Source: a candidate division Kazan bacterium RIFCSPHIGHO2_01_FULL_44_14
Lineage (GTDB): Bacteria; Patescibacteriota; Kazan-3B-28
DNA: 64,000 nt
Direction of reading: 5' to 3'
NCBI GenBank assembly: GCA_001771185.1
Contig: METB01000001.1
Coordinates: forward strand, 310,848-374,847
Below are positions 608 through 55,689 of the stretch, one piece after another. The translations under genes were made by a program, and so were the position numbers. The notes beneath the pieces were generated by a model. The model was not told where the DNA came from. It saw only the letters and a list, made by a program, of their open reading frames with translations, and ran no database searches. Numbering within the stretch: position 1 is the first letter of the stretch; every line of letters begins with the position of its first letter.

Positions 608-2533
608 ATGTGGGGGAAAGTTTTGTGTTGGATAATAGTAACTGGACTCGGACTGGGTCTGGTTCAATTTGTGTCAGCGGAAGGAGAGAGTCCGAGCGTG
701 ATTATCAATGAAGTGGCGTGGGCAGGAAGTACAAAGTCCAATGACGATGAGTGGATTGAACTGAAAAATACCACTGATGCACCCGTGAATATTAGTGACT
801 GGAAAATTACCCGGGCCAATAGCATTACCGATGGTAATACCATCGCAACCTTCGGGGAAGGCGTTACGATCCCAAGTGGTGGGTTTTTGTTAATTAGCCA
901 CTTTAGCCAAGACGATCAGGACAATTCAGTACTTAATGCCGAAAGCGTTGTGGTAGAGGACAAGATGTTGTTGGCGGATAGCAATTTACGACTTCGATTG
1001 TGGCAACCAGGCATTGAAACGCGCATTGATGAATTAACTAATATTACTCAAAGCGGTTACGACAAAGAGAATAAAATTACTACTGAACGGACTTCGGATG
1101 TGACTGGCTGGCAAAGTAGCACCCGTGCTAATCACCCTAATTTCGATATTGGCGTAACCGACCTCGGTACACCCAGTGCTGAAAATTCCACCATCACCGA
1201 GCCACCAACACTCGCATCAATTACTCCCAACACAGTAACGCAAGGCGAAGCGCTGGAAGTCGAAAACATTGTCGGAACTAACTTCAGCACAGAATCACTA
1301 CCAACTTTACAACTGGTTCGGGGTAACCTCACTATCAACGGAACCGATATCAATGTTGTAAATAGTACGCTGATTGACCGCGCAGAATTTTCTACTGCCG
1401 GCGGTACGGAAGTAGGGATGTGGAATTTGACTCTGACTAACCCCGATGGCAAAATCGCAACCCTACCAAACGCAGTGGAGGTCTTAGCCCCCGAACCAGA
1501 ATTTGATTTAGGGACTACTGTTCGCATCAACGAAATTTATCCTCATCCAAATACAACCAGTAATGATGAATTTATCGAACTGTACAACTCGGGCGACCGA
1601 GCAATCAACTTACTTAGCTGGCGACTCGACGATATTCCTGAAGGCGGCTCAGCGCCATATACTTTTGAAAATGTAAATATCGGGGCCAAAGGGTTTTTGG
1701 TGATATACAAACCGCAAAGCAAATTAACATTGAATGACAATGGCGATTCGGTCTATTTAATCCAGCCCGATAATTTTGTATTGGACCAAGTTGATTATGA
1801 CAACGCTGGAATCGGTCAGACCTTGTCACGATTTACAAGTGGTTGGAAATGGACCACCACTCCCACACCCAACGGTGCTAATGTTTTGAGCGAACCCGTG
1901 GACGATACACAGCCCAACGAACCACCATTAGAACCGGACGATGAACCGATTACTCCAACCTACCAATCTAAGGATTTAGAACTAACCGAATTACTTCCCA
2001 ACCCAAACTCGTCCGACGAGTTTATTGAATTATTCAATCCCGGCACGAGTGCCATCAATTTGACCGATTGGCAACTAAAAGATGCTTCCGGTAAAAAATA
2101 TACAATTGGAGATTTTGAGGTGACCGTCCAAGCCAATGGTCTGCTCATCCAGCCACAGCAGTATGTGGTGATTACTCAAACCATGTCCAAAATTGCGTTA
2201 AATAATTCTGGCGGAGAGACGGTAACACTACTAGACCCTAGTGGGCAAATAGTCGACAGCGCGTCCTATCCCGACAAAGCACCAGTGGGTGCATCTTACG
2301 CATTGATAACGGCTGGACTTTGGACTTGGGTACCAACCCCAACTCCAGGGCAGGCCAACTTGGTTACACTATCCGAAGACATGCCCACTCCAACCATTGA
2401 AGTAGTATCTACTCTTCCTGACACATTACCGGTTACTGGTGGTTCGGCTCGACGCTGGCTAGGTGTGTTACTGGTAAGTTTTGCATTGGCAGGCGTGGTA
2501 TTCTGGGAACGCAGGAAGAAACTTTTGCATTAG
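608..2533 (+). CDS. LPXTG-anchored cell-surface protein with three lamin-tail-domain (LTD) repeats.
   Basis: There is an N-terminal signal peptide. Three LTD-like segments are present (INEVAWAGSTKSNDDEWIELKN..DWKI; INEIYPHPNTTSNDEFIELYN..SWRLDD; LTELLPNPNSSDEFIELFN..DWQLKD). The C-terminus reads LPVTGG, then a hydrophobic stretch, then an RRKK tail, which is a sortase sorting signal. Confidence 0.7.
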   Translation: MWGKVLCWIIVTGLGLGLVQFVSAEGESPSVIINEVAWAGSTKSNDDEWIELKNTTDAPVNISDWKITRANSITDGNTIATFGEGVTIPSGGFLLISHFSQDDQDNSVLNAESVVVEDKMLLADSNLRLRLWQPGIETRIDELTNITQSGYDKENKITTERTSDVTGWQSSTRANHPNFDIGVTDLGTPSAENSTITEPPTLASITPNTVTQGEALEVENIVGTNFSTESLPTLQLVRGNLTINGTDINVVNSTLIDRAEFSTAGGTEVGMWNLTLTNPDGKIATLPNAVEVLAPEPEFDLGTTVRINEIYPHPNTTSNDEFIELYNSGDRAINLLSWRLDDIPEGGSAPYTFENVNIGAKGFLVIYKPQSKLTLNDNGDSVYLIQPDNFVLDQVDYDNAGIGQTLSRFTSGWKWTTTPTPNGANVLSEPVDDTQPNEPPLEPDDEPITPTYQSKDLELTELLPNPNSSDEFIELFNPGTSAINLTDWQLKDASGKKYTIGDFEVTVQANGLLIQPQQYVVITQTMSKIALNNSGGETVTLLDPSGQIVDSASYPDKAPVGASYALITAGLWTWVPTPTPGQANLVTLSEDMPTPTIEVVSTLPDTLPVTGGSARRWLGVLLVSFALAGVVFWERRKKLLH

Positions 2534-2698
2534 ATTTCCAGTCATGCTGAACTTGTTTCAGCATCCAAATCCTGAATCCCCTCGGTACACTCGAGACATT
2601 GTAAATTCAGGATGACCGTGCAAAAGATAGTGAACAGTCCTCCTTCGTTCTGCTGGACAGCAGAACTACGGAAGGACCTACAGTGAAAAGTTATAGTT

Positions 2699-2809
2699 GT
2701 CATTCCGAGTGACCCCGAGTGTAGCCGAGGGGAATCGAGGAATCTAGTCCCGGCTAGCCGGGACGGCTCCGCCTAGATCCTTCGACTCGCTTCGCTCACT
2801 CAGGATGAC
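2699..2809. repeat. MITE-like palindromic element with GTCATTCCGAGTGA...TCACTCAGGATGAC terminal inverted repeats and an internal GTCCCGGCTAGCCGGGAC palindrome.
   Basis: The 14-bp inverted arms and the internal palindrome were read directly. Related arms occur at 3879-3919, 55623-55689, 58804-58814 and 63593-63647. Confidence 0.6.
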
Positions 2810-2878
2810 AAAAAGAAGGGCTGGATCAGGATGACAAAAAGGAGGACTTACTTAAGATGACAGAATAAAAGAATACCA

Positions 2879-3325
2879 ATGGAGATTAAAGTCACAACCA
2901 ACAATTTATCTGCCACCCAAACACTAGGGGAATTGATTGGCAAGAATTTAAAGGGCGATGAGACCTTCGCCCTGGTTGCTGAACTCGGTGGTGGCAAAAC
3001 CTCATTCACCCAAGGACTGGCTCGCGGGTTGGGTATCAAAAAAATTGTGATTAGTCCGACTTTTGTATTGGAGCGAATTTATAAAAGCCGACATCCGCTC
3101 CATCATTTCGACATGTATCGAATCGAGGCCAGCGATGCCGATTCGACTGGGCTGTTGGATATTTTGGGCGAAGCGGTCGTGGTAGTGGAGTGGGCCGAAA
3201 AAATAAAGTCGCAGTTGCCAGACGATACTATTTGGGTAACCATCAAAGTGATGGGGGAGAACGAACGAGAGTTTATATTTGAGTATCCTGAAAATCGAAA
3301 TTATGCCTTCAAAAATGTTAAGTAA
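2879..3325 (+). CDS. tsaE: tRNA threonylcarbamoyladenosine biosynthesis ATPase TsaE (YjeE).
   Basis: It has a P-loop (AELGGGKTSFTQGLARGLG) and SPTFVL, with length and architecture typical of YjeE/TsaE. It is immediately followed by tsaB. Confidence 0.75.
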   Translation: MEIKVTTNNLSATQTLGELIGKNLKGDETFALVAELGGGKTSFTQGLARGLGIKKIVISPTFVLERIYKSRHPLHHFDMYRIEASDADSTGLLDILGEAVVVVEWAEKIKSQLPDDTIWVTIKVMGENEREFIFEYPENRNYAFKNVK

Positions 3326-3980
3326 TATTTTAGGAATCGATACTAGCCACGATGAAACCGTTATTGGATTGAACGGCAAGATTGTGGCGTGGAAATCGGT
3401 TCGCAACCAGTCCAAAGAATTACTGCCAAAAATTGACAAACTGCTTTCACAGCAGAAAATCAAGCCGAATAAATTAAAAGGTGTAGTGGTAAACATTGGC
3501 CCTGGTTCGTTCACCGGACTTAGGGTCGGAGTAACAGTCGCCAATGGTTTTGGCTATGGTCTGAAAATTCCGGTGGTGGGAATTAGTGAGTTTGAAGCAA
3601 TAAAAACTTTCTATCCCAAAATAGACATTATTGTACTGGATGCCAAGCGGGGAGAGTTATTTATTCAGGCCAGGAAGTCAGCACCGAAATTAATCACTGC
3701 CGATAAACTTGGCGAGCTGATTAAAATCGGCACCCAAATTTATGTTGACGATTACCGACTCATTCCCATCATCCATGAGCAATTGAAAAAAGCCGGGACG
3801 ATTTACATCCCTGGCCTCACCCGCCAACAAAAAATGACAGCCATGATGGAGACAGCGGGTAAGCGGAATCAGAGATTCCTAGATCCTTCAACTCCGCTTC
3901 GCTCCACTCGGGATGACAATAAATTGTCAGTTTTGCCACTATATCTCCGTGGAGCCAATATCACACGAAAGAAAATCTAA
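3303..3980 (+). CDS. tsaB: tRNA threonylcarbamoyladenosine biosynthesis protein TsaB (YeaZ). The last ~30 codons derive from a repeat element.
   Basis: The N-terminus reads LGIDTSHDETVIGL...GPGSFTGLRVGVTVANGFGYG, the YeaZ/Kae1-family fold. Start chosen at the ATG at 3303 downstream of the tsaE overlap (an alternative ATG lies at 3315). Confidence 0.7.
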   Translation: MPSKMLSNILGIDTSHDETVIGLNGKIVAWKSVRNQSKELLPKIDKLLSQQKIKPNKLKGVVVNIGPGSFTGLRVGVTVANGFGYGLKIPVVGISEFEAIKTFYPKIDIIVLDAKRGELFIQARKSAPKLITADKLGELIKIGTQIYVDDYRLIPIIHEQLKKAGTIYIPGLTRQQKMTAMMETAGKRNQRFLDPSTPLRSTRDDNKLSVLPLYLRGANITRKKI

Positions 3981-4097
3981 CCAATCTAATCAATTTAATC
4001 CAATCTAATCAAAAATACGGACTGAGTCCTTCTCTGGATTGGTGAGATTGGTAGAGATTGAATAATTGGATAAATTACAGTTGCCTCGGGCAACTGT

Positions 4098-4388
4098 TTA
4101 AAATCCCATCAAAAACATCTTCTCGCCTTTGGCAAACCTTAATGCAGGCGAGGTTTCGAGAGCAGTATTACGGAAGTTTTCCGGACTATTTAAAATTGTT
4201 TGAGCGTAGTCGGTCGGGGAAATGACTGGAACGGGGGCTTGAACAACCACCGACGCCTCGGTTTTTTGTAACTGTCCATTAATCTCTTGACTAAACCACA
4301 CCACACTAGCTAATAAAATATAGCCGAGCACCAGTATCCCAAACATGCCGAGAGTTAAAAATCCAAAATGACGGCGAGAATGTTTCAT
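4098..4388 (-). CDS. Small membrane-anchored protein, translationally coupled (TAATG) to the upstream giant gene.
   Basis: There is an N-terminal TM helix (FGFLTLGMFGILVLGYILLASVVWF). Its start codon overlaps the stop of the 1485-aa ORF. Confidence 0.5.
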   Translation of the reverse strand: MKHSRRHFGFLTLGMFGILVLGYILLASVVWFSQEINGQLQKTEASVVVQAPVPVISPTDYAQTILNSPENFRNTALETSPALRFAKGEKMFLMGF

Positions 4389-20307: not shown

Positions 20308-20379
20308 TCTTGGGTCCGTAGCTCCAGCCCGCAAAGCTACGCTTAGCGTTGCTGGCGGGTAGTGGTAAAGCAATAAATT

Positions 20380-20628
20380 ATGCACTACACCTATGTTCTA
20401 CAATCAAAACTAGACGGACATCTCTATGTGGGATGTACTGCTAACTTGATGGCTCGTATAGAGACGCACAACTCTGGTGCGGTATCGTCTACCCGTTCGC
20501 GTAGACCCTTAGAACTGGTGTATTATGAGGCATGTTTGTCTGAAAAGCTGGCACATACTCGGGAACAACAATTAAAAACAGGGTTTGGTCGAGCTTATTT
20601 AAAGAGACGTCTTGGGTCCGTAGCTTAG
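20380..20628 (+). CDS. GIY-YIG domain protein (UPF0213/YhbQ-like small nuclease).
   Basis: It reads YTYVLQSKLDGHLYVGCTANLMARIETHN...RPLELVYYE...REQQLK, a GIY-YIG core of the right length. Its last codons and stop lie inside the tRNA-Lys gene. Confidence 0.7.
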   Translation: MHYTYVLQSKLDGHLYVGCTANLMARIETHNSGAVSSTRSRRPLELVYYEACLSEKLAHTREQQLKTGFGRAYLKRRLGSVA

Positions 20629-20687
20629 TGGTAAAGCAGTTGCCTTTTAAGCAATTGATGCAGGTCCGATTCCTGCCGGACCCACCA
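20614..20687 (+). tRNA. tRNA-Lys (anticodon TTT).
   Basis: The cloverleaf was read by eye: acceptor GGGTCCG/CGGACCC, D-arm GCTTAGTGGTAAAGC, anticodon loop CTTTTAA, T-arm CAGGTCCGATTCCTG, and an encoded CCA. A terminator hairpin follows. Confidence 0.8.
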
Positions 20688-29383: not shown

Positions 29384-29574
29384 CCCAGTAGAAGATTTTA
29401 GATGATAATACTCTTTCTGATTATGCAATCAAGTAGTACCGTTTGAACAGCAGATATTAAATATAACCTGTTAGTTGACCAAATACTTTGTATTATCAGC
29501 CTAATCAAATCTAAAATTCTCTACTGGGCATGGCCACCCCATTATAACAATGTCGGCAAATCCACAGACCAAAA

Positions 29575-30181: not shown

Positions 30182-30256
30182 TGGTAGCCCCAACGGGAGT
30201 CGGACCCGTCTTTTCAGATTGAAAATCTGACGTCCTAACCGATAGACGATGGGGCC
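30182..30256 (-). tRNA. tRNA-Glu (anticodon TTC).
   Basis: The cloverleaf was read on the reverse complement: D-arm GTCTATCGGTTAGGAC, anticodon stem TCAGA/TCTGA, loop TTTTCAA, and an encoded CCA. Confidence 0.7.
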
Positions 30257-30378
30257 AAGAACTACTGCGTAGTTAATATCCAATCACCAAATTTCAAATA
30301 ACAAAGGGGAGAGAAACAGATTCTAGGTTTTGTTTGATAATTGACTATTGGATATTGGTTATTACAGCGAAGCTGTTC

Positions 30379-30453
30379 TGGTGGGCGCAGAAGGATTCGG
30401 ACCTTCGGCCAATCGCTTAAGAGGCGACTGCTCTACCGCTGAGCTATGCGCCC
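30379..30453 (-). tRNA. tRNA-Lys (anticodon CTT).
   Basis: On the reverse complement: GGGCGCATAGCTCAGCGGTAGAGCAGTCGCCTCTTAAGCGAT..GAAGGTCCGAATCCTTCTGCGCCCACCA. Confidence 0.8.
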
Positions 30454-30521
30454 ACAAAAATGCTTCTTGCATTTTAATACTCAATAATCAAATTACAATA
30501 ATCAAATAATTTGTCTTTAGT

Positions 30522-30645
30522 GGGAACCCCGAAATGGTCTAGTTCCGATGAATAGAGGAACGAACATTTTGGGGAAGAGGAGCAACGCCGAGTCCTAATA
30601 GGTCAGTGAGTTTACCGAACTGACCGTTAAGACGAGGCCGTTGCG
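30522..30645. ncRNA. Copy 2 of the ~125-nt stem-loop element (between tRNA-Lys-CTT and tRNA-Arg-CCG).
   Basis: It is nearly identical to 20183-20307 and ends 6 nt from the tRNA-Arg(CCG) 3' end. Confidence 0.45.
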
Positions 30646-30651
30646 ACGAAG

Positions 30652-30727
30652 TGGCGCGCCCGAAGGGAGTCGAACCCCCGACCTTTGGAACCGGAATCCA
30701 ACGCTCTATCCACTGAGCTACGGGCGC
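30652..30727 (-). tRNA. tRNA-Arg (anticodon CCG).
   Basis: On the reverse complement: GCGCCCGTAGCTCAGTGGATAGAGCGTTGGATTCCGGTTCCAAAGGTCGGGGGTTCGACTCCCTTCGGGCGCGCCA. Confidence 0.8.
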
Positions 30728-30749
30728 ATGTTATCTGGATTGTCTGCAG

Positions 30750-30826
30750 TGGGGTGGGCGATGGGATTTGAACCCACGGTCACTCGGACCACAACCGAGA
30801 GCTTTAACCACTAAGCTACGCCCACC
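30750..30826 (-). tRNA. tRNA-His (anticodon GTG) with an encoded G-1.
   Basis: On the reverse complement: g-GTGGGCGTAGCTTAGTGGTTAAAGCTCTCGGTTGTGGTCCGAG..TTCAAATCCCATCGCCCACCCCA. The extra 5' G pairs with the discriminator C. Confidence 0.8.
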
Positions 30827-30862
30827 CCACTGCAGACAACTGTTCAACAAATTATTAAAGAA

Positions 30863-30940
30863 GGGGACCCCGAAATGGTCTAATTTCGATGAATAGAGGA
30901 ATGAACATTTTGGGGAAAGGAAAAATGCTGAGCCCCAGTA
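30863..30940. ncRNA. Copy 3 (partial, diverged) of the stem-loop element.
   Basis: The first hairpin is retained with compensatory changes (GUUCC/GGAAC becomes AUUUC/GGAAU). The second half is diverged. Confidence 0.4.
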
Positions 30941-31016
30941 ACCGTTCTGCTGTACAGCAGAACGCGCGTCAGATGATGAATATCGGCCATAGACCTCGCG
31001 TTGCCTTGGCGAAGTG

Positions 31017-31092
31017 TGGCGGCCCCGGGAGGAATCGAACCCCCAACCTTATCGTTAGAACCGATCTGCTCTATCCGTTGAGCTACGGGGCC
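31017..31092 (-). tRNA. tRNA-Arg (anticodon TCT).
   Basis: On the reverse complement: GGCCCCGTAGCTCAACGGATAGAGCAGATCGGTTCTAACGATAAGGTTGGGGGTTCGATTCCTCCCGGGGCCGCCA. Confidence 0.75.
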
Positions 31093-31200
31093 ATCTGGTC
31101 AGACATCAGGCAAGGTACATCATAAATCTAGCATAAGCAATAACAAAAAGCTCCGCTTCCAAAATGCAGAGCTGAATCAATTGGGATAAATTAACTTAAT

Positions 31201-31596
31201 TTAGCAAAGAGGGGAATGGATTTGTTGACGCTTCAGAGCTGACTGGATTTCGCCCTTAGTCATGACAAAGAACTGAAAGAAACCTAATTGGGGAACAGTC
31301 AACCCTCGAAAAACTTTTTTTGATTCACGCTCTACCCGCGGTTCTTGCCAGTTGGGATAAATCTCATGCATCAGTTCATGAACAAGAGTAATCACCCGAT
31401 CGTTTATCCCAATCCGCCGATTAATAAAAATTTTTAACTCATCTGGCACAATATAGCCCTTGGCAGCTCTGTGTCTAGTGCCTCGTTTACCAGTCCCGCC
31501 ATTTTGAGGGACACTAGTTAAAATCACCTCATAACCAGAGTAGAGGAGGGTGTTCTTTAGTTTAAGGAACCAATTGTTTGTTTTTGTTTTTGCCAC
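31201..31596 (-). CDS. Hypothetical HExxH metallopeptidase-like protein.
   Basis: It has LVHELMHEIYPNW (HExxH plus a downstream E), is 131 aa, and sits between tRNA genes. Confidence 0.4.
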   Translation of the reverse strand: MAKTKTNNWFLKLKNTLLYSGYEVILTSVPQNGGTGKRGTRHRAAKGYIVPDELKIFINRRIGINDRVITLVHELMHEIYPNWQEPRVERESKKVFRGLTVPQLGFFQFFVMTKGEIQSALKRQQIHSPLC

Positions 31597-31846
31597 TGAT
31601 TTTCAATTGTCATCCCAACGCTTTTATAGCACTTCTAATAATTATAGCATAAAACTCCCTAACTGTCAAGTAGTAAAGAGTGGCTCCTGGACAATAAAAC
31701 TCTAATCAAAACAACAGATCAAACTGCTGTCTGTGATTTTGAGAGTGGCCCATGCTTCGCCCTGTGGGCTACCGCAGGGCAGTCTTCGCTTTCCATCTTA
31801 AAATCTTCCCTGGCGTAGCCAGGCGTAGCTTCAACGAAGCGAAGCC

Positions 31847-31920
31847 TGGAGCGGGGTACCGGATTCGAACCGGCGTCCTTGCCTTGGAAGGGCAATATAC
31901 TACCATTGTACTAACCCCGC
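31847..31920 (-). tRNA. tRNA-Gly (anticodon TCC).
   Basis: On the reverse complement: GCGGGGTTAGTACAATGGTAGTATATTGCCCTTCCAAGGCAAGGACGCCGGTTCGAATCCGGTACCCCGCTCCA. Confidence 0.75.
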
Positions 31921-35838: not shown

Positions 35839-35977
35839 AAAAAATAGTTAATAGTGCTAAGTGATAAGTGGTGGAAAAAGATTTTTATATGTTTATTCTG
35901 CCGTCAGGCAGAGACCATAACTATTCACCGCAGGTCCCTCCGTAGTTCTGCTGTCTAGCAGAACGAAGGAGAACTTT

Positions 35978-37693
35978 TCACTCCAATATGGCTTTAATCC
36001 GTCTGACTCCCGCGCTGCTACTCTGCTCTTTTACGATTCTAAAAGTTCCTAACTCTTTACTGGTTTGAATATGTGGACCGCCGCAGAGTTCTTTGCTGAT
36101 AACTTCGCCCGTGGTTTCATTATATATCGTATAAACATCGACTTCGGCCGGATATTTTTCCTTGAAGAAAGCCAGCGCCCCGGCTTGGATCGCATCCGCA
36201 TACGGTAAAGTTTCTTTTTTTATCACAAAACCGGCTTGAATCTTTTGATTTACCCAATCCTCAATTCGTTTTAATTCATCTGGCTCAACTCGGCGGGGAA
36301 AAGCAAAATCGAACCGAGTCCGCTCCGAGTTAATATCCGAACCGCCTTGATGAATTTCCTCGCCCAAAATTTCCCTTAAGGCAGCGTGCAGCAAATGGGT
36401 GGCGGTATGCAGACGAGTAATGATTTGTTGGTCAGTTTCGCTTACGACCGCTCCAGCCGAGAGCCCATGTCCACCAAATTTTTCTTCTACTCCCGCCCTG
36501 GAAACGTCCTGGTGCTGGGCAAAGGCCGTTTCGAACTCGGCTTCATTAACTGGCACTTTCTCTTTTATAAAATCAATTGGCAAACCGTAACTGGCAAATA
36601 GGTTAAAGGCCTGTTGACCGGTTAATGCTTTGGGATGGGTCTGTAATAGTTTATCTAGTTCTTTAGAACCAAGTTCGAGGGTACGAATAAACTTGTCGGC
36701 CTCTTCGCGAGCAAACTGCGAGATTGCCTGATGTTCGGCTACCAGTTCGGGATAGACCGGGCCAAATAAATCAATAACCGTTTCGATTAATTCATCTAAC
36801 CTGACACCGCTACTATGAATATGCAACAGCACCCGGCGCAAAATCCGGCGGAGAATATATCCTTGCTCTTTGTTGGATGGCCGAACATAGTCAGCCAGCA
36901 AAAATACTACTCCGCGGATATGGTCGGCGACCACTCGTTGGGCCTTAACCGGTAAATTGGTGAGTTTGGCCATGATTGGCGCAAACACATCCGTCGCAAA
37001 AATAGTTTCCAACTGATTCACTGCCACCAACAGTCGTTCTAGCCCCATACCAGTATCCACGCCCTTGGTGGGGAGGGGAGTTAGCTCCTCATTGGAGTGG
37101 CAATAGAATTCATTGAATACTAAATTCCACACTTCCACTCCATCCACATAAAATTCGACTGTCGGACCGCAAGGACCCTCTGTGCCAGTCGGCCCCCAAA
37201 AATTATCAGTATCGGGTTGGGCCATAATCTTAGTTAGACCAGGCAGGGTTTCTAAAATCTGTTTAGCTTCAGTGTCTTCAGCCGTCCCAGTTCGATTACC
37301 ATTATAAAAAGTGGCGAATAGCCGGTTCTTGTCTATGTTGAGAAACTTTGGATCAGTTAAAAACTCCCAAGCATACTCAATCGCTTCTGGTTTAAAATAT
37401 CCGCCAAACGAAAAATTACCCAACATCTCAAAAAAAGTTAGGTGAGTGTCATCGCCAACTTCATCGATATCGGCGGTCCGAAAACATTTCTGAATCGAAA
37501 CTACATTTTGCGAACCAAAATCTTTTTCGGCCTCTTTTAGTCCAACAAAGTACGGTTTGAATTGCTGCATCCCGGCGGTTGTTAACAAAACCGAAGCATC
37601 GTCTTTGGGCAACAGCGAAGCCGAGAGCACTAACTTGTGTCCTTTGTTCTCGAAGAATTGGAGAAACTTTTGCCTTAACTCTAGATGATTCAT
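35978..37693 (-). CDS. alaS: Alanyl-tRNA synthetase, compact form (catalytic plus editing domains, no C-Ala domain).
   Basis: It has the class II motifs, the editing-site HTATHLLHAAL and CGGPH, and ends right after the editing domain. Confidence 0.85.
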   Translation of the reverse strand: MNHLELRQKFLQFFENKGHKLVLSASLLPKDDASVLLTTAGMQQFKPYFVGLKEAEKDFGSQNVVSIQKCFRTADIDEVGDDTHLTFFEMLGNFSFGGYFKPEAIEYAWEFLTDPKFLNIDKNRLFATFYNGNRTGTAEDTEAKQILETLPGLTKIMAQPDTDNFWGPTGTEGPCGPTVEFYVDGVEVWNLVFNEFYCHSNEELTPLPTKGVDTGMGLERLLVAVNQLETIFATDVFAPIMAKLTNLPVKAQRVVADHIRGVVFLLADYVRPSNKEQGYILRRILRRVLLHIHSSGVRLDELIETVIDLFGPVYPELVAEHQAISQFAREEADKFIRTLELGSKELDKLLQTHPKALTGQQAFNLFASYGLPIDFIKEKVPVNEAEFETAFAQHQDVSRAGVEEKFGGHGLSAGAVVSETDQQIITRLHTATHLLHAALREILGEEIHQGGSDINSERTRFDFAFPRRVEPDELKRIEDWVNQKIQAGFVIKKETLPYADAIQAGALAFFKEKYPAEVDVYTIYNETTGEVISKELCGGPHIQTSKELGTFRIVKEQSSSAGVRRIKAILE

Positions 37694-41741: not shown

Positions 41742-41922
41742 AACAGGAGAATCTTATACCGAACCGCCACCTAGAGTCAACCCGGTAGAAGAAATTTGAT
41801 TGCGCTTTGCGCCGACGCCTAAAAGGGCATATCAAATTTTCTCTACTGGGTCAACTATGGGGAATTGGACACAAAAAGGACGGGTGGATTGCTCTAACCC
41901 GTCCACCTATAAGATTAAGTGC

Positions 41923-43472: not shown

Positions 43473-43555
43473 TGAGAAAGTGAAAAGTTAAAAGTTAAAA
43501 GTTGAGGAATTCCGGCGGAGCCGAAAATTTGATACAAAACATAGAGAACGGAGAA

Positions 43556-50516: not shown

Positions 50517-50775
50517 AGAAATGGATTTAGAATAAGAAAGGGATTCGGAACGACCTTGGTTATTTAAGTATAACAAACTCGCCTCAGGACAAGATAATCT
50601 GTCTTGCGCCTACCTAACCCGACCAACCTATATATAATAGTGGAGTATGCCCCGTAGAGAAATTTAGATTGCCCTATTGGGTATGGCCCCATAGTGCAAC
50701 ATCTGTTCATCTCACAGGGCAACTCACACTAGTGAGTTATCTTGTTGGCATAATATCTAAATTCTTCTACGGGGT

Positions 50776-52878
50776 ATGTCTGACCTATTGACCGGGCTTA
50801 ATCCAGAACAAGCCAAAGCCGTGAAACAAATTAAGGGTCCTGTCTTGGTATTGGCCGGAGCGGGGAGTGGGAAGACCAAAGCCCTAACCCACCGAGTGGC
50901 GTATTTAGTAAATGAAGAAAAAATCTCGCCGGACAAAATTCTGGCGATTACTTTTACTAACAAAGCCGCTGGCGAAATGCGCGAACGGGTCAAACGAATT
51001 ATTGGAACTCGGAGCAATAAAAACTTTAATATCAGTACCTTCCATTCCTTCTGTGCTCGGATGCTCCGACGCGAAGCCCACCATTTGGGCTACGCCCCCA
51101 GTTTCAGTATTTTAGATGCCGATGACCAACTTACTGCCATCAAGCAAGCCATGGAGCAGTTGCAAATGGATACTAAAAAGATTGTTCCAGAAGCGGTTCG
51201 ATCACACATTTCTTCGGCCAAAAATGAATTACTCGACGAAGATGCTTACGCCAAAATCGCCAACGGCGCTTTCCAACAAGCAGTTGCCAAAATCTACCGA
51301 CTATACCAAGACATCCTTCGGCGCGCTCAAGCCATGGATTTTGACGACTTGCTAATGAACTTAGTAGTAATTCTCCAACAACATCCCGAAATACTTGACC
51401 GGTACCAAAATCAATTTCAATATATTTTAATTGATGAGTATCAAGATACGAACACAGCCCAATATCGGCTAAGTCAACTTCTGGCCAACAAACACCATAA
51501 CCTATTTGTGGTCGGGGACGACTGGCAATCGATTTACTCATGGAGGGGCGCGAATTTCCGAAACATCTTAAACTTCCATAGTGACTATCCCGACGCTAAG
51601 ATTATTAAATTAGAACAAAACTACCGTTCAACTCAAAACATTCTCGACTCGGCCCATGCCGTCATCGCCCACAATAAACACCGAAGCGACAAAAAACTAT
51701 GGACCGACCAGACCCAAGGAGAGCTTCTAACTGCCTATGAGGCACTGAACGAAAAAGATGAAGGAGATTTCGTGGTCCGAGAAATCGCGGCTTGGCGAGG
51801 GCGTACCAATGCCTCATTGAATGATTTTGTAATTTTATACCGGACCAATGCTCAATCCAGAGCGCTAGAAGAAACCATGCTCCGGGCTGGAATTCCATAC
51901 CGAGTAGTGGGCGGAGTCAAATTCTACGAGCGCAAAGAGATTAAGGACATGTTGGCTTTTCTGAAATTGCTACACAACCCTGGTGACAATTTAGCACTTG
52001 GCCGAGTAATCAATCTGCCAGTGCGCGGGATTGGGAAAAAGACCCTGCAATCGCTTGAACAAGAAGCCCGAATAGCCGATGTCGGAATGTATCATTACCT
52101 TACTCACTTGGCCAACCCAACTCCGGCCATCCAAGATTTTGTGGCGGTAATGAAAAAAATTGAATCCAAAAGTACTACTCTCACACTTAGTCGGCTACTC
52201 GATTTTATTCTGCTGACTACTGGCTATCAAACCTTGCTAAAGAGTGAGGGAATAGAGGGGGAGACCCGGTTAGAAAACATCGCCGAACTAAAATCGGTAA
52301 TGGAAAAATACGACCATCTAGCACCCAAAGAAGCGCTCACTACTTTTCTAGAAGAAGTGGCTCTTATTTCTGACATTGATAATGTCGATACCGCCGATGA
52401 TGCCGTAACAATGATGACGATGCACACCGCTAAAGGGTTGGAGTTTGATTTTGTATTTATTGTTGGCGCCGAAGAAAATCTCTTCCCTCACAGCCGAAGT
52501 TTGTTTGACCAAGAAGAATTGGAAGAAGAGCGCCGACTGTGTTACGTCGGGATTACTCGAGCCAGAAAGAAAGTGTATTTCACCCACGCCCAAGAGCGCC
52601 TTATCTACGGTAGTATCCAGTCCAACCATCGTTCCAGATTCATTGATGATCTGCCTGACGAGTTGGTAGAGTTCGTTCGCCGATCCGGTCCGGTCAGCGC
52701 CATCGGTTCTGGGCATCGGACTGGCAACCGATTACAGCCAGGAGTTCGCGTAATTCATCAAAAATTTGGCCCCGGGACAGTCATCAGCCAAAGCGGCGAT
52801 ATTATCACAGTCGCTTTTGTAAAAACTGGGATTAAGGATTTATCCGCCGACTTAGCCGGCCTGAAAGTTAAAACATGA
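50776..52878 (+). CDS. pcrA: ATP-dependent DNA helicase PcrA/UvrD.
   Basis: It has Walker A (AGAGSGKTKALTHR), the conserved UvrD motif III context (DDWQSIYSWRGA), and motifs V and VI. Confidence 0.9.
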   Translation: MSDLLTGLNPEQAKAVKQIKGPVLVLAGAGSGKTKALTHRVAYLVNEEKISPDKILAITFTNKAAGEMRERVKRIIGTRSNKNFNISTFHSFCARMLRREAHHLGYAPSFSILDADDQLTAIKQAMEQLQMDTKKIVPEAVRSHISSAKNELLDEDAYAKIANGAFQQAVAKIYRLYQDILRRAQAMDFDDLLMNLVVILQQHPEILDRYQNQFQYILIDEYQDTNTAQYRLSQLLANKHHNLFVVGDDWQSIYSWRGANFRNILNFHSDYPDAKIIKLEQNYRSTQNILDSAHAVIAHNKHRSDKKLWTDQTQGELLTAYEALNEKDEGDFVVREIAAWRGRTNASLNDFVILYRTNAQSRALEETMLRAGIPYRVVGGVKFYERKEIKDMLAFLKLLHNPGDNLALGRVINLPVRGIGKKTLQSLEQEARIADVGMYHYLTHLANPTPAIQDFVAVMKKIESKSTTLTLSRLLDFILLTTGYQTLLKSEGIEGETRLENIAELKSVMEKYDHLAPKEALTTFLEEVALISDIDNVDTADDAVTMMTMHTAKGLEFDFVFIVGAEENLFPHSRSLFDQEELEEERRLCYVGITRARKKVYFTHAQERLIYGSIQSNHRSRFIDDLPDELVEFVRRSGPVSAIGSGHRTGNRLQPGVRVIHQKFGPGTVISQSGDIITVAFVKTGIKDLSADLAGLKVKT

Positions 52879-55519: not shown

Positions 55520-55622
55520 AATAAGTAAGGAATAATCAATCTTCAATCCGCCAGCTGGCGGAACAATTATCAAAAAGACCAAAACGGGCAATGCCCGATT
55601 TTTGTTAACCAAACAGTTGCTT

Positions 55623-55689
55623 GTCATTGCGAGTAACCGGAGGGAACGAAGCAATCTGGATTGCCACGGGCTAAAGCCCTTGCAATGAC
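55623..55689. repeat. Palindromic MITE-like element (GTCATTGCGAG...CTTGCAATGAC).
   Basis: The inverted arms were read directly. The internal segment GAAGCAATCTGGATTGCC recurs at 63593. Confidence 0.55.

Follow-up and report, generated by a model that had tools for sequence, protein, structure and literature searches.

The DNA examined here is a 64,000-nt stretch (the window) of contig METB01000001.1, from a bacterium of the candidate phyla radiation (CPR) belonging to the Kazan lineage, and our subject is a family of hairpin repeats found upstream of tsaE and inside tsaB. The best named relative of the window TsaB in a homologue search comes from candidate division Kazan bacterium GW2011_GWC1_52_13 (73% identity), and in the complete Kazan genome CP011216 the genes stand in an identical order: RNase Y, LTD-domain protein, tsaE, tsaB, small open reading frame (ORF) and ~1470-aa protein. 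The tsaB product can be taken as a 225-aa form beginning MPSK or as a 222-aa form starting at 3312, the latter being used here for residue numbering. The LTD-domain gene and tsaE are separated by a mosaic spacer whose hairpin modules also turn up at other sites of the window and in related genomes: module A (2541-2616), an inverted dimer of two hairpin arms designated A-left and A-right, then module B, then the 111-bp element C (Table 1). The syntenic spacer of CP011216 measures 84 bp and holds module A only, with an arm homologous to A-left at the equivalent position; modules B and C are missing there, and the ~260 extra bp of the window spacer (2618-2878) are absent from that locus.

Table 1. 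Coordinates of the repeat features and of the two genes they adjoin or enter, as positions in the window.
Feature	Position	Strand	Description	Evidence
Arm A-left	2541..2565	+	GTC-ATGCTGAA-cttgt-TTCAGCAT-C hairpin, directly 3' of the LTD-domain gene stop	Structural arm scan
Arm A-right	2566..2616	-	GTC-ATCCTGAAT-(27 nt)-ATTCAGGAT-T; GGATGAC at 2610-2616	Direct reading
Module B	2630..2692	+	~63-nt unit between GTGAACAGT and GTGAAAAGTT, around palindrome TTCTGCTGGACAGCAGAA (2648-2665)	
Element C, left arm	2699..2747	+	(T)GTC-ATTCC-loop-GGAAT-C..GAGGAATC-TAG	Direct reading and arm scan
Element C, central spacer	2748..2772	.	Own small hairpin (TCCCGGCTAGCCGGGA)	Fold
Element C, right arm	2773..2809	-	(T)GTC-ATCCT-GAGTGAGCGAAGCGAGTCGA-AGGAT-C-TAG	Direct reading and arm scan
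Tandem arm-end copies and A-rich tail	2800..2865	+	TCAGGATGACAAAAAG.. twice, then AGATGACAGAA; stops 13 nt before the tsaE ATG	
tsaE	2879..3325	+		Pfam PF02367, E=7.9e-33
tsaB	3303..3980	+		Pfam PF00814; homologues; AlphaFold2 model (mean predicted local distance difference test score, pLDDT, 86.5; predicted template modelling score, pTM, 0.83)
Solo arm inside tsaB	3878..3919	-	(T)GTC-ATCCC-GAGTGGAGCGAAGCGGAGTTGA-AGGAT-C-TAG; antisense to tsaB	Alignment
In-frame tsaB insertion, 45 nt	3879..3923	+	Encodes LDPSTPLRSTRDDNK, aa 190-204 of 222	Orthologue and DNA alignment
Compact inverted arm dimer, 67 nt	55623..55689	.	ATTGC stems (TGTCATTGCGAG..GCAATCTGG / CCAGATTGC..GCAATGACA); between convergent ORFs	Arm scan
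Solo arm	63603..63647	-	GTC-ATTGC-..-GCAAT-C-TAG; loop holds the module-B palindrome	Arm scan

Element C (2699-2809) begins with GTCATTCCGAGTGA and ends with TCACTCAGGATGAC. A sequence-only reading of the window had described it as a 111-bp element with 14-bp inverted ends; it is present where that reading had put it, and its ends are complementary at 12 of 14 positions, an imperfect match. Both strands fold into a long, imperfect hairpin (RNA minimum free energy -54.9 and -56.7 kcal/mol; z -3.6 and -3.8), a stability reached by 0 of 200 shuffles. Its right arm carries the 21-nt core GCTTCGCTCACTCAGGATGAC, which is found across ~13 phyla. The three tandem units seen ahead of tsaE, built on GGATGACA, are real and consist of two blocks, 2800-2825 and 2826-2851, that form a 26-nt tandem duplicate of the arm end (81% identical), followed by a third, partial unit at 2855-2865. 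The palindrome GTTCTGCTGGACAGCAGAAC reported at 2647-2666 is likewise real and belongs to a dispersed motif: the palindrome TTCTGCTGNNCAGCAGAA occurs six times in the window, at 2648, 30066, 30945, 35946, 63519 and 63616, against 0.01 copies expected, and the whole ~63-nt module B unit is repeated in the opposite orientation at 35917-35981. Two of the six copies fall in a tRNA cluster, and the palindrome also lies inside the loop of a TGTC-tagged arm both in the related contig L128 and at 63603-63647 of the window; an operator, a terminator and an independent mobile module are all conceivable roles for it.

The arms share one plan: an unpaired TGTC tag precedes a hairpin whose stem starts with AT, and immediately behind the hairpin stand a C and a short TAG tail. 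A structural scan for GTC followed by a 5-nt stem beginning with AT, 3-45 nt of loop, the second half of the stem and a C found eight arms, a lower bound for the window, compared to 1.3 +/- 1.05 in dinucleotide shuffles. TGTCAT stands at 2698-2703, at 2805-2810 and 3913-3918 on the minus strand, and at the arms at 55622, 55690 and 63648, with AGTCAT in A-left. The stems are ATTCC/GGAAT, ATCCT/AGGAT, ATGCTGAA/TTCAGCAT and ATTGC/GCAAT, closed by GGAATC-TAG, AGGATC-TAG (twice) and GCAATC-TAG, -TGG or -CAG, while the closing base of A-right is T and not C (..AGGAT-T). Stem lengths range from 5 to 9 bp and loops from 5 nt (A-left) to 31 nt. The arms form three dimers in the window (2541-2616, 2699-2809 and 55623-55689). 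Directly after the arm end ...CTCGCAATGACAGAAAA, at 63650-63700, lie about five tandem CTATTCA (ACTATTC) heptamers, and motifs related to these, AACTATTAACTT, lie near 43484, 59416 and 63688 as well as at the breakpoint of the strain contig L004 described below.

The right half of element C recurs inside tsaB, as the sequence-only reading had proposed, and a proper alignment reproduces the similarity: of the 42 columns that align 2772-2811 with 3878-3919, 38 are identical and two are 1-nt gaps (blastn-short, E=1e-4 in 64 kb), and at the same stringency no further copy of this arm beyond the tsaB one was found in the window. The sequence constitutes an internal, lineage-specific insertion. Among the 41 closest relatives aligned, 40 read ..KMxAML..AKLPKKF-SQVLPLYLRGANITK.. 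uninterrupted and lack the LDPSTPLRSTRDDNK segment; in the window TsaB and in the single exception, the near-identical metagenomic strain protein P0001, that segment stands between the two blocks, i.e., between the conserved ..KLPKKF and SQVLPLYLRGANIT... Alignment at the DNA level with CP011216 and with a JGI relative agrees that the insertion is internal and in-frame, so that the reading frame is kept and the flanking conserved sequence is intact. The terminal 18 residues (LSVLPLYLRGANITRKKI) are the ancestral conserved tail, with PLYLRGANIT and the invariant P209, Y211 and R213. The proposal that a repeat copy supplies the C-terminus of TsaB, accounting for its last ~30 residues, is thus wrong in detail: the segment is indeed repeat-derived and, as that reading had predicted, specific to the lineage and absent from orthologues, but it comprises 15 residues and is not C-terminal. 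The AlphaFold2 model built on the orthologue alignment (Table 1) is confident apart from residues 189-203, exactly where pLDDT is lower than 50; this stretch comes directly behind the last helix (171-184) and ahead of the conserved tail, and the model predicts a disordered loop for the insert.

Upstream of the tsaB copy, the alignment score for a left arm was no better than that of shuffles (p about 0.17-0.18), and since no left-arm remnant is detectable the copy is taken as a solo arm; its stem has one mismatch (ATCCC vs AGGAT). Its 22-nt core is the C-containing variant GCTTCGCTCCACTCRGGATGAC, common in other phyla too, whereas the intergenic copy has the 21-nt variant. Because the cores differ, the two look like separate variants of the family, and the core sequences argue that the tsaB arm is not a recent copy of the nearby element.

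The TsaB loop and the spacer vary among relatives. Six other orthologues have unrelated inserts in the same loop, which is a hot spot, a few residues upstream of the position of the window insert (e.g., AGQSSFARELRTGKQVSPTSPRLRRICDG in P0023). The DNA of these inserts matches modules in the LTD-tsaE spacers of the same contigs in L126 (p=0.001) and L128 (p=0.004 and <0.001), whereas in L127 and L005 the inserts contain short tandem AGC(G/A)GGT(T/A)AG units instead. Comparison of the near-identical strain contig L004 with window positions 2638-4261 placed all differences in module B (a 13-bp indel and seven substitutions) or in the tsaB arm, with none in the remaining ~1,550 bp. The tsaB difference, 3915 G>T, falls within the GTCAT tag.

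Other features of these two contigs were observed alongside. L126, a related Kazan-lineage contig, has a ~200-bp composite hairpin block in near-identical direct copies at 722-920 and 2226-2420, bracketing tsaE-tsaB. In L004 the loop of module B has an extra TCCGCCAGCTGGC palindrome, present too at window 55548-55563. L004:1-311 is unrelated to window 2330-2637, upstream of module B, and L004 lacks the end of the LTD gene; this divergence upstream of ~2638 may reflect a rearrangement or a metagenome assembly break at a repeat.

The arm is not confined to the Kazan lineage. A scan of 596 Gb, one genome for each species, with the core GCTTCGCTC(N)ACTCRGGATGAC located the 21-22-nt sequence in at least 120 genome stretches, with about 1.1 expected by chance. 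Hosts among the matches listed span roughly 13 phyla and include Bacillota, Bacteroidota, Acidobacteriota, Pseudomonadota, Planctomycetota, Verrucomicrobiota, Omnitrophota, Nitrospirota, Actinomycetota and a metagenome-assembled genome of the CPR group Magasanikiibacteriota; the isolates among them include Roseospira navarrensis, Hymenobacter, Sediminibacterium and Bifidobacterium vespertilionis. R. navarrensis DSM 15114 has at least 17 copies, embedded in a longer conserved repeat of 100 nt or more. Related loci yielded 64 inverted arm pairs with a median length of 111 nt, the length of element C, and 8% of arm pairs fall in open frames of at least 600 nt, compared to 79% of random positions. 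In 452 related arms, the position before GTC is T in 77% and G in 3%, and the stems begin with AT. A C follows the closing stem in each of the 12 commonest 4-nt tails; together these tails account for 208 of the 296 arms whose closing stem is exact. Loop lengths have modes at 11-12, 19-22 and 26-30 nt.

Solo arms inside genes are a small minority of these copies, consistent with the literature. One, at L008:7239-7268, is in-frame in the inter-domain linker of an Acidobacteria (Terracidiphilus) TPR/FG-GAP protein and encodes GPSTSLRSTQDDK, nearly the same peptide as the TsaB insert; another, at L091:5411-5440, is in-frame in a CPR (Magasanikiibacteriota) amidohydrolase (..HLSSRANPPAGGGVEGS..). 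Other candidates were discarded. The three best candidates for full arm dimers within long ORFs elsewhere proved to be 5'-leader or shadow-frame artefacts, and the matches in the ArgRS genes of three Acidobacteriaceae (L076, L085 and L111; ..VRHPELSEAERASIATQ..) probably represent ordinary conserved coding sequence in which the 22-mer arose by chance rather than by insertion. Literature text searches with raw sequences or peptides (GTCATTCCGAG, GTCATCCTGAGCG, HPERSEG, FASLRMT, GTCATTGCGAG and others) yielded nothing beyond primers that matched by chance.

Inspection of conserved flanks revealed small GIY-YIG ORFs beside the arms. In three loci, L117 (Faecousia), L093 (Planctomycetota) and L115 (Oscillospiraceae), a ~93-aa GIY-YIG ORF is exactly bracketed by arms, in the order left arm TGTCATCCCGA..GGGATCT, short leader, GIY-YIG ORF and right arm AGATCCCTCGA..CTCGGGATGACA. 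A PDB search with the arm-flanked nuclease gave only weak matches, to UPF0213 and SLX1. The association was assessed on 80 metagenome loci picked solely by similarity of their proteins to the arm-flanked GIY-YIG proteins. A GTCATYCYGA arm lay within 250 nt of the GIY-YIG gene in 54 of the 80, over a background of 0.11 arms per kb, and a correctly oriented arm was present upstream in 37, downstream in 39 and on both sides in 25. These proportions can be set beside those of the Ssn family of single-domain GIY-YIG nucleases (cd10448; Chenal et al., 2025, Nat Commun 16:2388; PMC11893778): 71% of SsnA homologues have the motif nearby and 42% have it on both sides, compared to 68% and 31% of the genes considered here, and the arrangement NTS-ssnA-NTS was likened to an insertion sequence (IS) by those authors (PMC11893778).

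We consider it probable that element C is an inverted dimer of CGTC/TGTC-tagged hairpins of the repetitive extragenic palindromic (REP) class, also called NTS or Ssn-related motifs (SRM), and that the arm in tsaB is a passenger which the gene tolerates. The assignment to this class follows from the tag, the AT-initiated stem, the closing C and the TAG tail, and the same positions are conserved in the 452 related arms. As in the SRM definition, the window arms have GTC 5' of the palindrome with a non-G base before it, and the palindrome begins directly after GTC; the closing C and YRG are found in all of them except A-right. On these features, the arms appear to be a long-loop variant of the described class, newly seen in a CPR genome.

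Several results weigh against this interpretation. The published SRM pattern HGTCWYN(0-2)YYVSBRHN(0-5)WNVSBRGN(0-2)RNCYNB has no match in the window, while the NTS control matches, and it finds none of the 459 GTCATYCYGA arms in 200 loci (L006-L125 and L129-L208); the pattern fails on the window arms because their loops are too long and their inner stem composition differs. The four described CGTC-tagged REP families have 8-9-bp stems and 4-5-nt loops, compared to the 5-9-bp stems and long loops seen here. A gene for an Ssn-type GIY-YIG nuclease was not found within the 64-kb window, and its sole GIY-YIG ORF, at 20380-20628, is closer to UPF0213 (1zg2, E=1e-4, compared to 0.087 for the arm-flanked type) and has no adjoining arms. 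The placement of the arm-flanked proteins in the Ssn clade is suggested by their size, single-domain architecture and shared motif ends. The GIY-YIG protein P0202, finally, lies on 24 contigs always between the same ABC-F and ArgRS genes, with no sign of mobility.

Four other explanations were considered, each of them less well supported than an inverted dimer of REP-class hairpins with a tolerated arm in tsaB. Terminal inverted repeats, a length of ~111 bp and presence or absence between related genomes would all suit a classical MITE (a miniature transposable element with inverted repeats), namely a deletion derivative of a DDE-transposase IS that is mobilised in trans via its terminal inverted repeats and leaves target-site duplications. 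Direct reading showed no such duplication at 2698/2810 or at 55622/55690: the flanks of the element (..TATAGT/TGTCAT and ATGACA/AAAAGA) and those of the 55-kb dimer (..GTTGCT/TGTCAT and ATGACA/TTGATA) are without direct repeat. The ends, moreover, are structured hairpins with a conserved tag, closing C and tail, common to NTS and dRS3 and unlike any IS end (PMC11893778), and the sole gene type found between such arms is the GIY-YIG nuclease, so that this origin appears extremely improbable. The sequence-only reading had called the repeats a modular palindromic, MITE-like family; modular and palindromic they are, since the spacer modules recur, and MITE-like they are only in a loose sense, given the REP-type ends and the lack of target-site duplication. 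Two inverted REP-like hairpins of ~110 nt in mosaic clusters resembling bacterial interspersed mosaic elements (BIMEs) also correspond to the architecture of REPINs (the subject of PMC3116915), which would be mobilised by a REP-associated tyrosine transposase (RAYT) of the IS200/IS605 type. This we judge highly unlikely: RAYT-associated REPs have a GTAG tag and the window tag is TGTC, and a Y1 transposase was not seen beside arms in 200 loci, in a survey that included no search aimed at RAYT genes, whereas GIY-YIG genes were.

The other two alternatives concern what the repeats do at this locus and how the tsaB segment arose. The cluster occupies the interval from the LTD gene stop to the tsaE start, its hairpins are strong, REPs are frequently transcribed (PMC3733652), and the arm end ATGACA together with TAAGAT resembles a promoter at 9/12 positions, 20 nt ahead of the tsaE ATG, all of which could point to a host-selected cis-regulatory element for tsaE/tsaB, either an RNA terminator or stabiliser or an out-reading promoter, with the tsaB copy as functional coding sequence. 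That sigma-70-like match (ATGACA-16-TAAGAT, 2831-2858), however, is weak and not significant; in a scan of 2400-4200 promoter-like and terminator-like counts were no higher than in shuffles, and the hairpins are not followed by a T-run. Rfam, run on the window and on 18 foreign arm loci at the gathering threshold and on 2400-4200 in E-value mode, returned only tRNAs and one unrelated riboswitch, and no described RNA family corresponds to the repeats. The CP011216 locus functions with its short spacer lacking modules B and C, and the inserted peptide, which is predicted to be disordered, differs from strain to strain (D to Y). We therefore regard a regulatory role as improbable, if the least so of the four. 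Local ectopic gene conversion or template switching off the element 1.1 kb upstream, rather than independent insertion of a family member, would fit the proximity of the two arms of this type, the only ones in the window, and the evidence from L004 that modules here do exchange sequence. It nevertheless seems very unlikely as the source of the tsaB segment, which differs from the intergenic copy by two 1-nt indels and two substitutions and has the other core variant, and other orthologues gained unrelated modules at the same loop.

If element C and the tsaB arm are REP-class hairpins, the arms may be single-stranded DNA hairpin substrates of an Ssn-type nuclease, which we propose with moderate confidence, and a nuclease of that type would act on the arms of the window. 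In many phyla the arm-gene-arm arrangement has the form of an IS-like cassette whose arms match those of the window in sequence, and gene-less arm dimers such as 2699-2809 are the abundant intergenic form. With low confidence, we suggest that new copies might arise by nuclease-initiated events or by recombination between copies, and that the tsaB insert might persist since it landed in a permissive loop; TsaB with the 15-residue insert presumably remains functional. A further extension, which we regard as possible but doubtful, is that long-loop GTCATYCYGAG...GGATC arms make up a widespread hairpin/GIY-YIG branch (at least 13 phyla) missed by the SRM and CGTC-REP definitions, and that in CPR bacteria with 0.6-Mb genomes arms and modules would be an active source of in-frame protein variation, through nuclease- or recombination-targeted turnover rather than as passive relics. 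The idea of targeted turnover comes from the same TsaB loop having been hit independently by at least three or four modules and from strain differences lying exclusively in repeats.

The locus reveals no new mechanism. For annotation, the 15 odd residues of TsaB and many spurious small ORFs (..SLRS.RDD.., VIPSE..) would be translations of a known repeat class. The Ssn-motif/CGTC-REP class would extend to a candidate-phylum (Kazan) genome and to a long-loop variant, and since the published patterns miss long-loop arms, surveys using them probably undercount the class. The Kazan bacteria would also be a second reduced-genome lineage, parallel to Rickettsia, with palindromic repeats in-frame in housekeeping genes, and the different inserts at one TsaB loop in sister lineages offer a natural series for asking whether such inserts are neutral.

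Additional structures were observed elsewhere in the window. The 82-aa UPF0213-like ORF at 20380-20628 ends inside tRNA-Lys(ttt) (20614-20687), and part of the tRNA 5' end is duplicated ahead of it: CTTGGGTCCGTAGCT is found at 20308 as well as 20608, and TAGTGGTAAAGCA near 20356 as well as 20623, and the 36-nt insert CCAGCCCGCAAAGCTACGCTTAGCGTTGCTGGCGGG interrupts the duplicate; the region 20308-20687 looks like a nuclease cassette inserted into the 5' half of the tRNA with target duplication. Six minus-strand tRNA genes at 30185-31920 are interspersed with palindromes, and a perfect 21-nt inverted repeat brackets the tRNA at 30753-30825. A second, unrelated inverted-repeat family has three copies, at 29384-29528, 41770-41861 and 50647-50777, with arms CCCnGTAGA(A/G)(A/G)Ann TTTAGAT / ATCTAAAnnTCTCTACnGGG of 20-31 nt, placed 30-105 nt apart and containing GTAG.

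Among described repeats, REPINs and BIMEs resemble the window elements in being inverted REP doublets of ~100 nt that form long hairpins in mosaic intergenic clusters, and differ in their tag and in the associated gene, which is a Y1 (HUH) transposase rather than a GIY-YIG nuclease. A closer counterpart is NTS/SRM. The 94-aa SsnA of N. meningitidis binds the hairpin repeat NTS CGTCATTCCCGCGMAVGCGGGAATCYRG solely as single-stranded DNA and cuts a few nt upstream; the three bases before the NTS palindrome govern cleavage, and the C after it is the most critical base for binding (PMC11893778). The plan of the arms described above corresponds to the positions required by SsnA. The window arms share with NTS/SRM the GTCAT tag after a non-G base, the AT-initiated stem, the C after the stem and the YRG (TAG) tail, and their ends GTCATTCC..GGAATC-TAG resemble NTS CGTCATTCCC..GGGAATCYRG (PMC11893778). 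In both cases the repeats are directional hairpins, mostly intergenic and clustered, and arms identical to those of the window adjoin a ~93-aa single-domain GIY-YIG gene on one or both sides in other genomes. The differences lie in the loops, which are much longer here (mostly 21-31 nt in the window arms and, in the shortest relatives, 11-12 nt), in the shorter, AT/GC-mixed stems, and in the host, the CPR (Kazan) being a group unmentioned in PMC11893778.

The CGTC-tagged REPs, whose tag is sometimes TGTC, whose stems begin with AT and in which head-to-head dimers predominate (Di Nocera, De Gregorio and Rocco, 2013, BMC Genomics 14:522; PMC3733652), were equated by their authors with Neisseria dRS3, RPE-4 and RPE-6 of Rickettsia conorii being CGTC-4 and CGTC-1, respectively; intragenic copies in real genes were listed as well (PMC3733652). 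The window arms have the unpaired TGTC tag and AT at the first two stem positions, and arms of this type are likewise predominantly inverted dimers, mainly intergenic with occasional intragenic copies. Short unpaired tails are also present, CCA-like at 2563-2565 and CCAG on the minus strand of 55659-55689, although the window tail is mostly CTAG and not CCA. The hosts reported for CGTC REPs fall in five phyla, mainly Alphaproteobacteria, without CPR.

The tsaB insertion has its nearest counterpart in RPE-4 and RPE-6, which are inserted into protein-coding genes without a break in the reading frame (Ogata et al., 2000, cited in PMC3733652). Organism and arm sequences differ, the decorated TsaB is a predicted protein, and the case consists of one solo arm (15 aa) in one gene within 64 kb, compared to dozens of genes in Rickettsia. 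Both are nonetheless in-frame palindromic inserts in a conserved housekeeping gene of a reduced genome, and both add a short peptide and leave the downstream conserved sequence undisturbed. By analogy, the tsaB insert is most likely a tolerated passenger sequence, as with RPE-4 and RPE-6.

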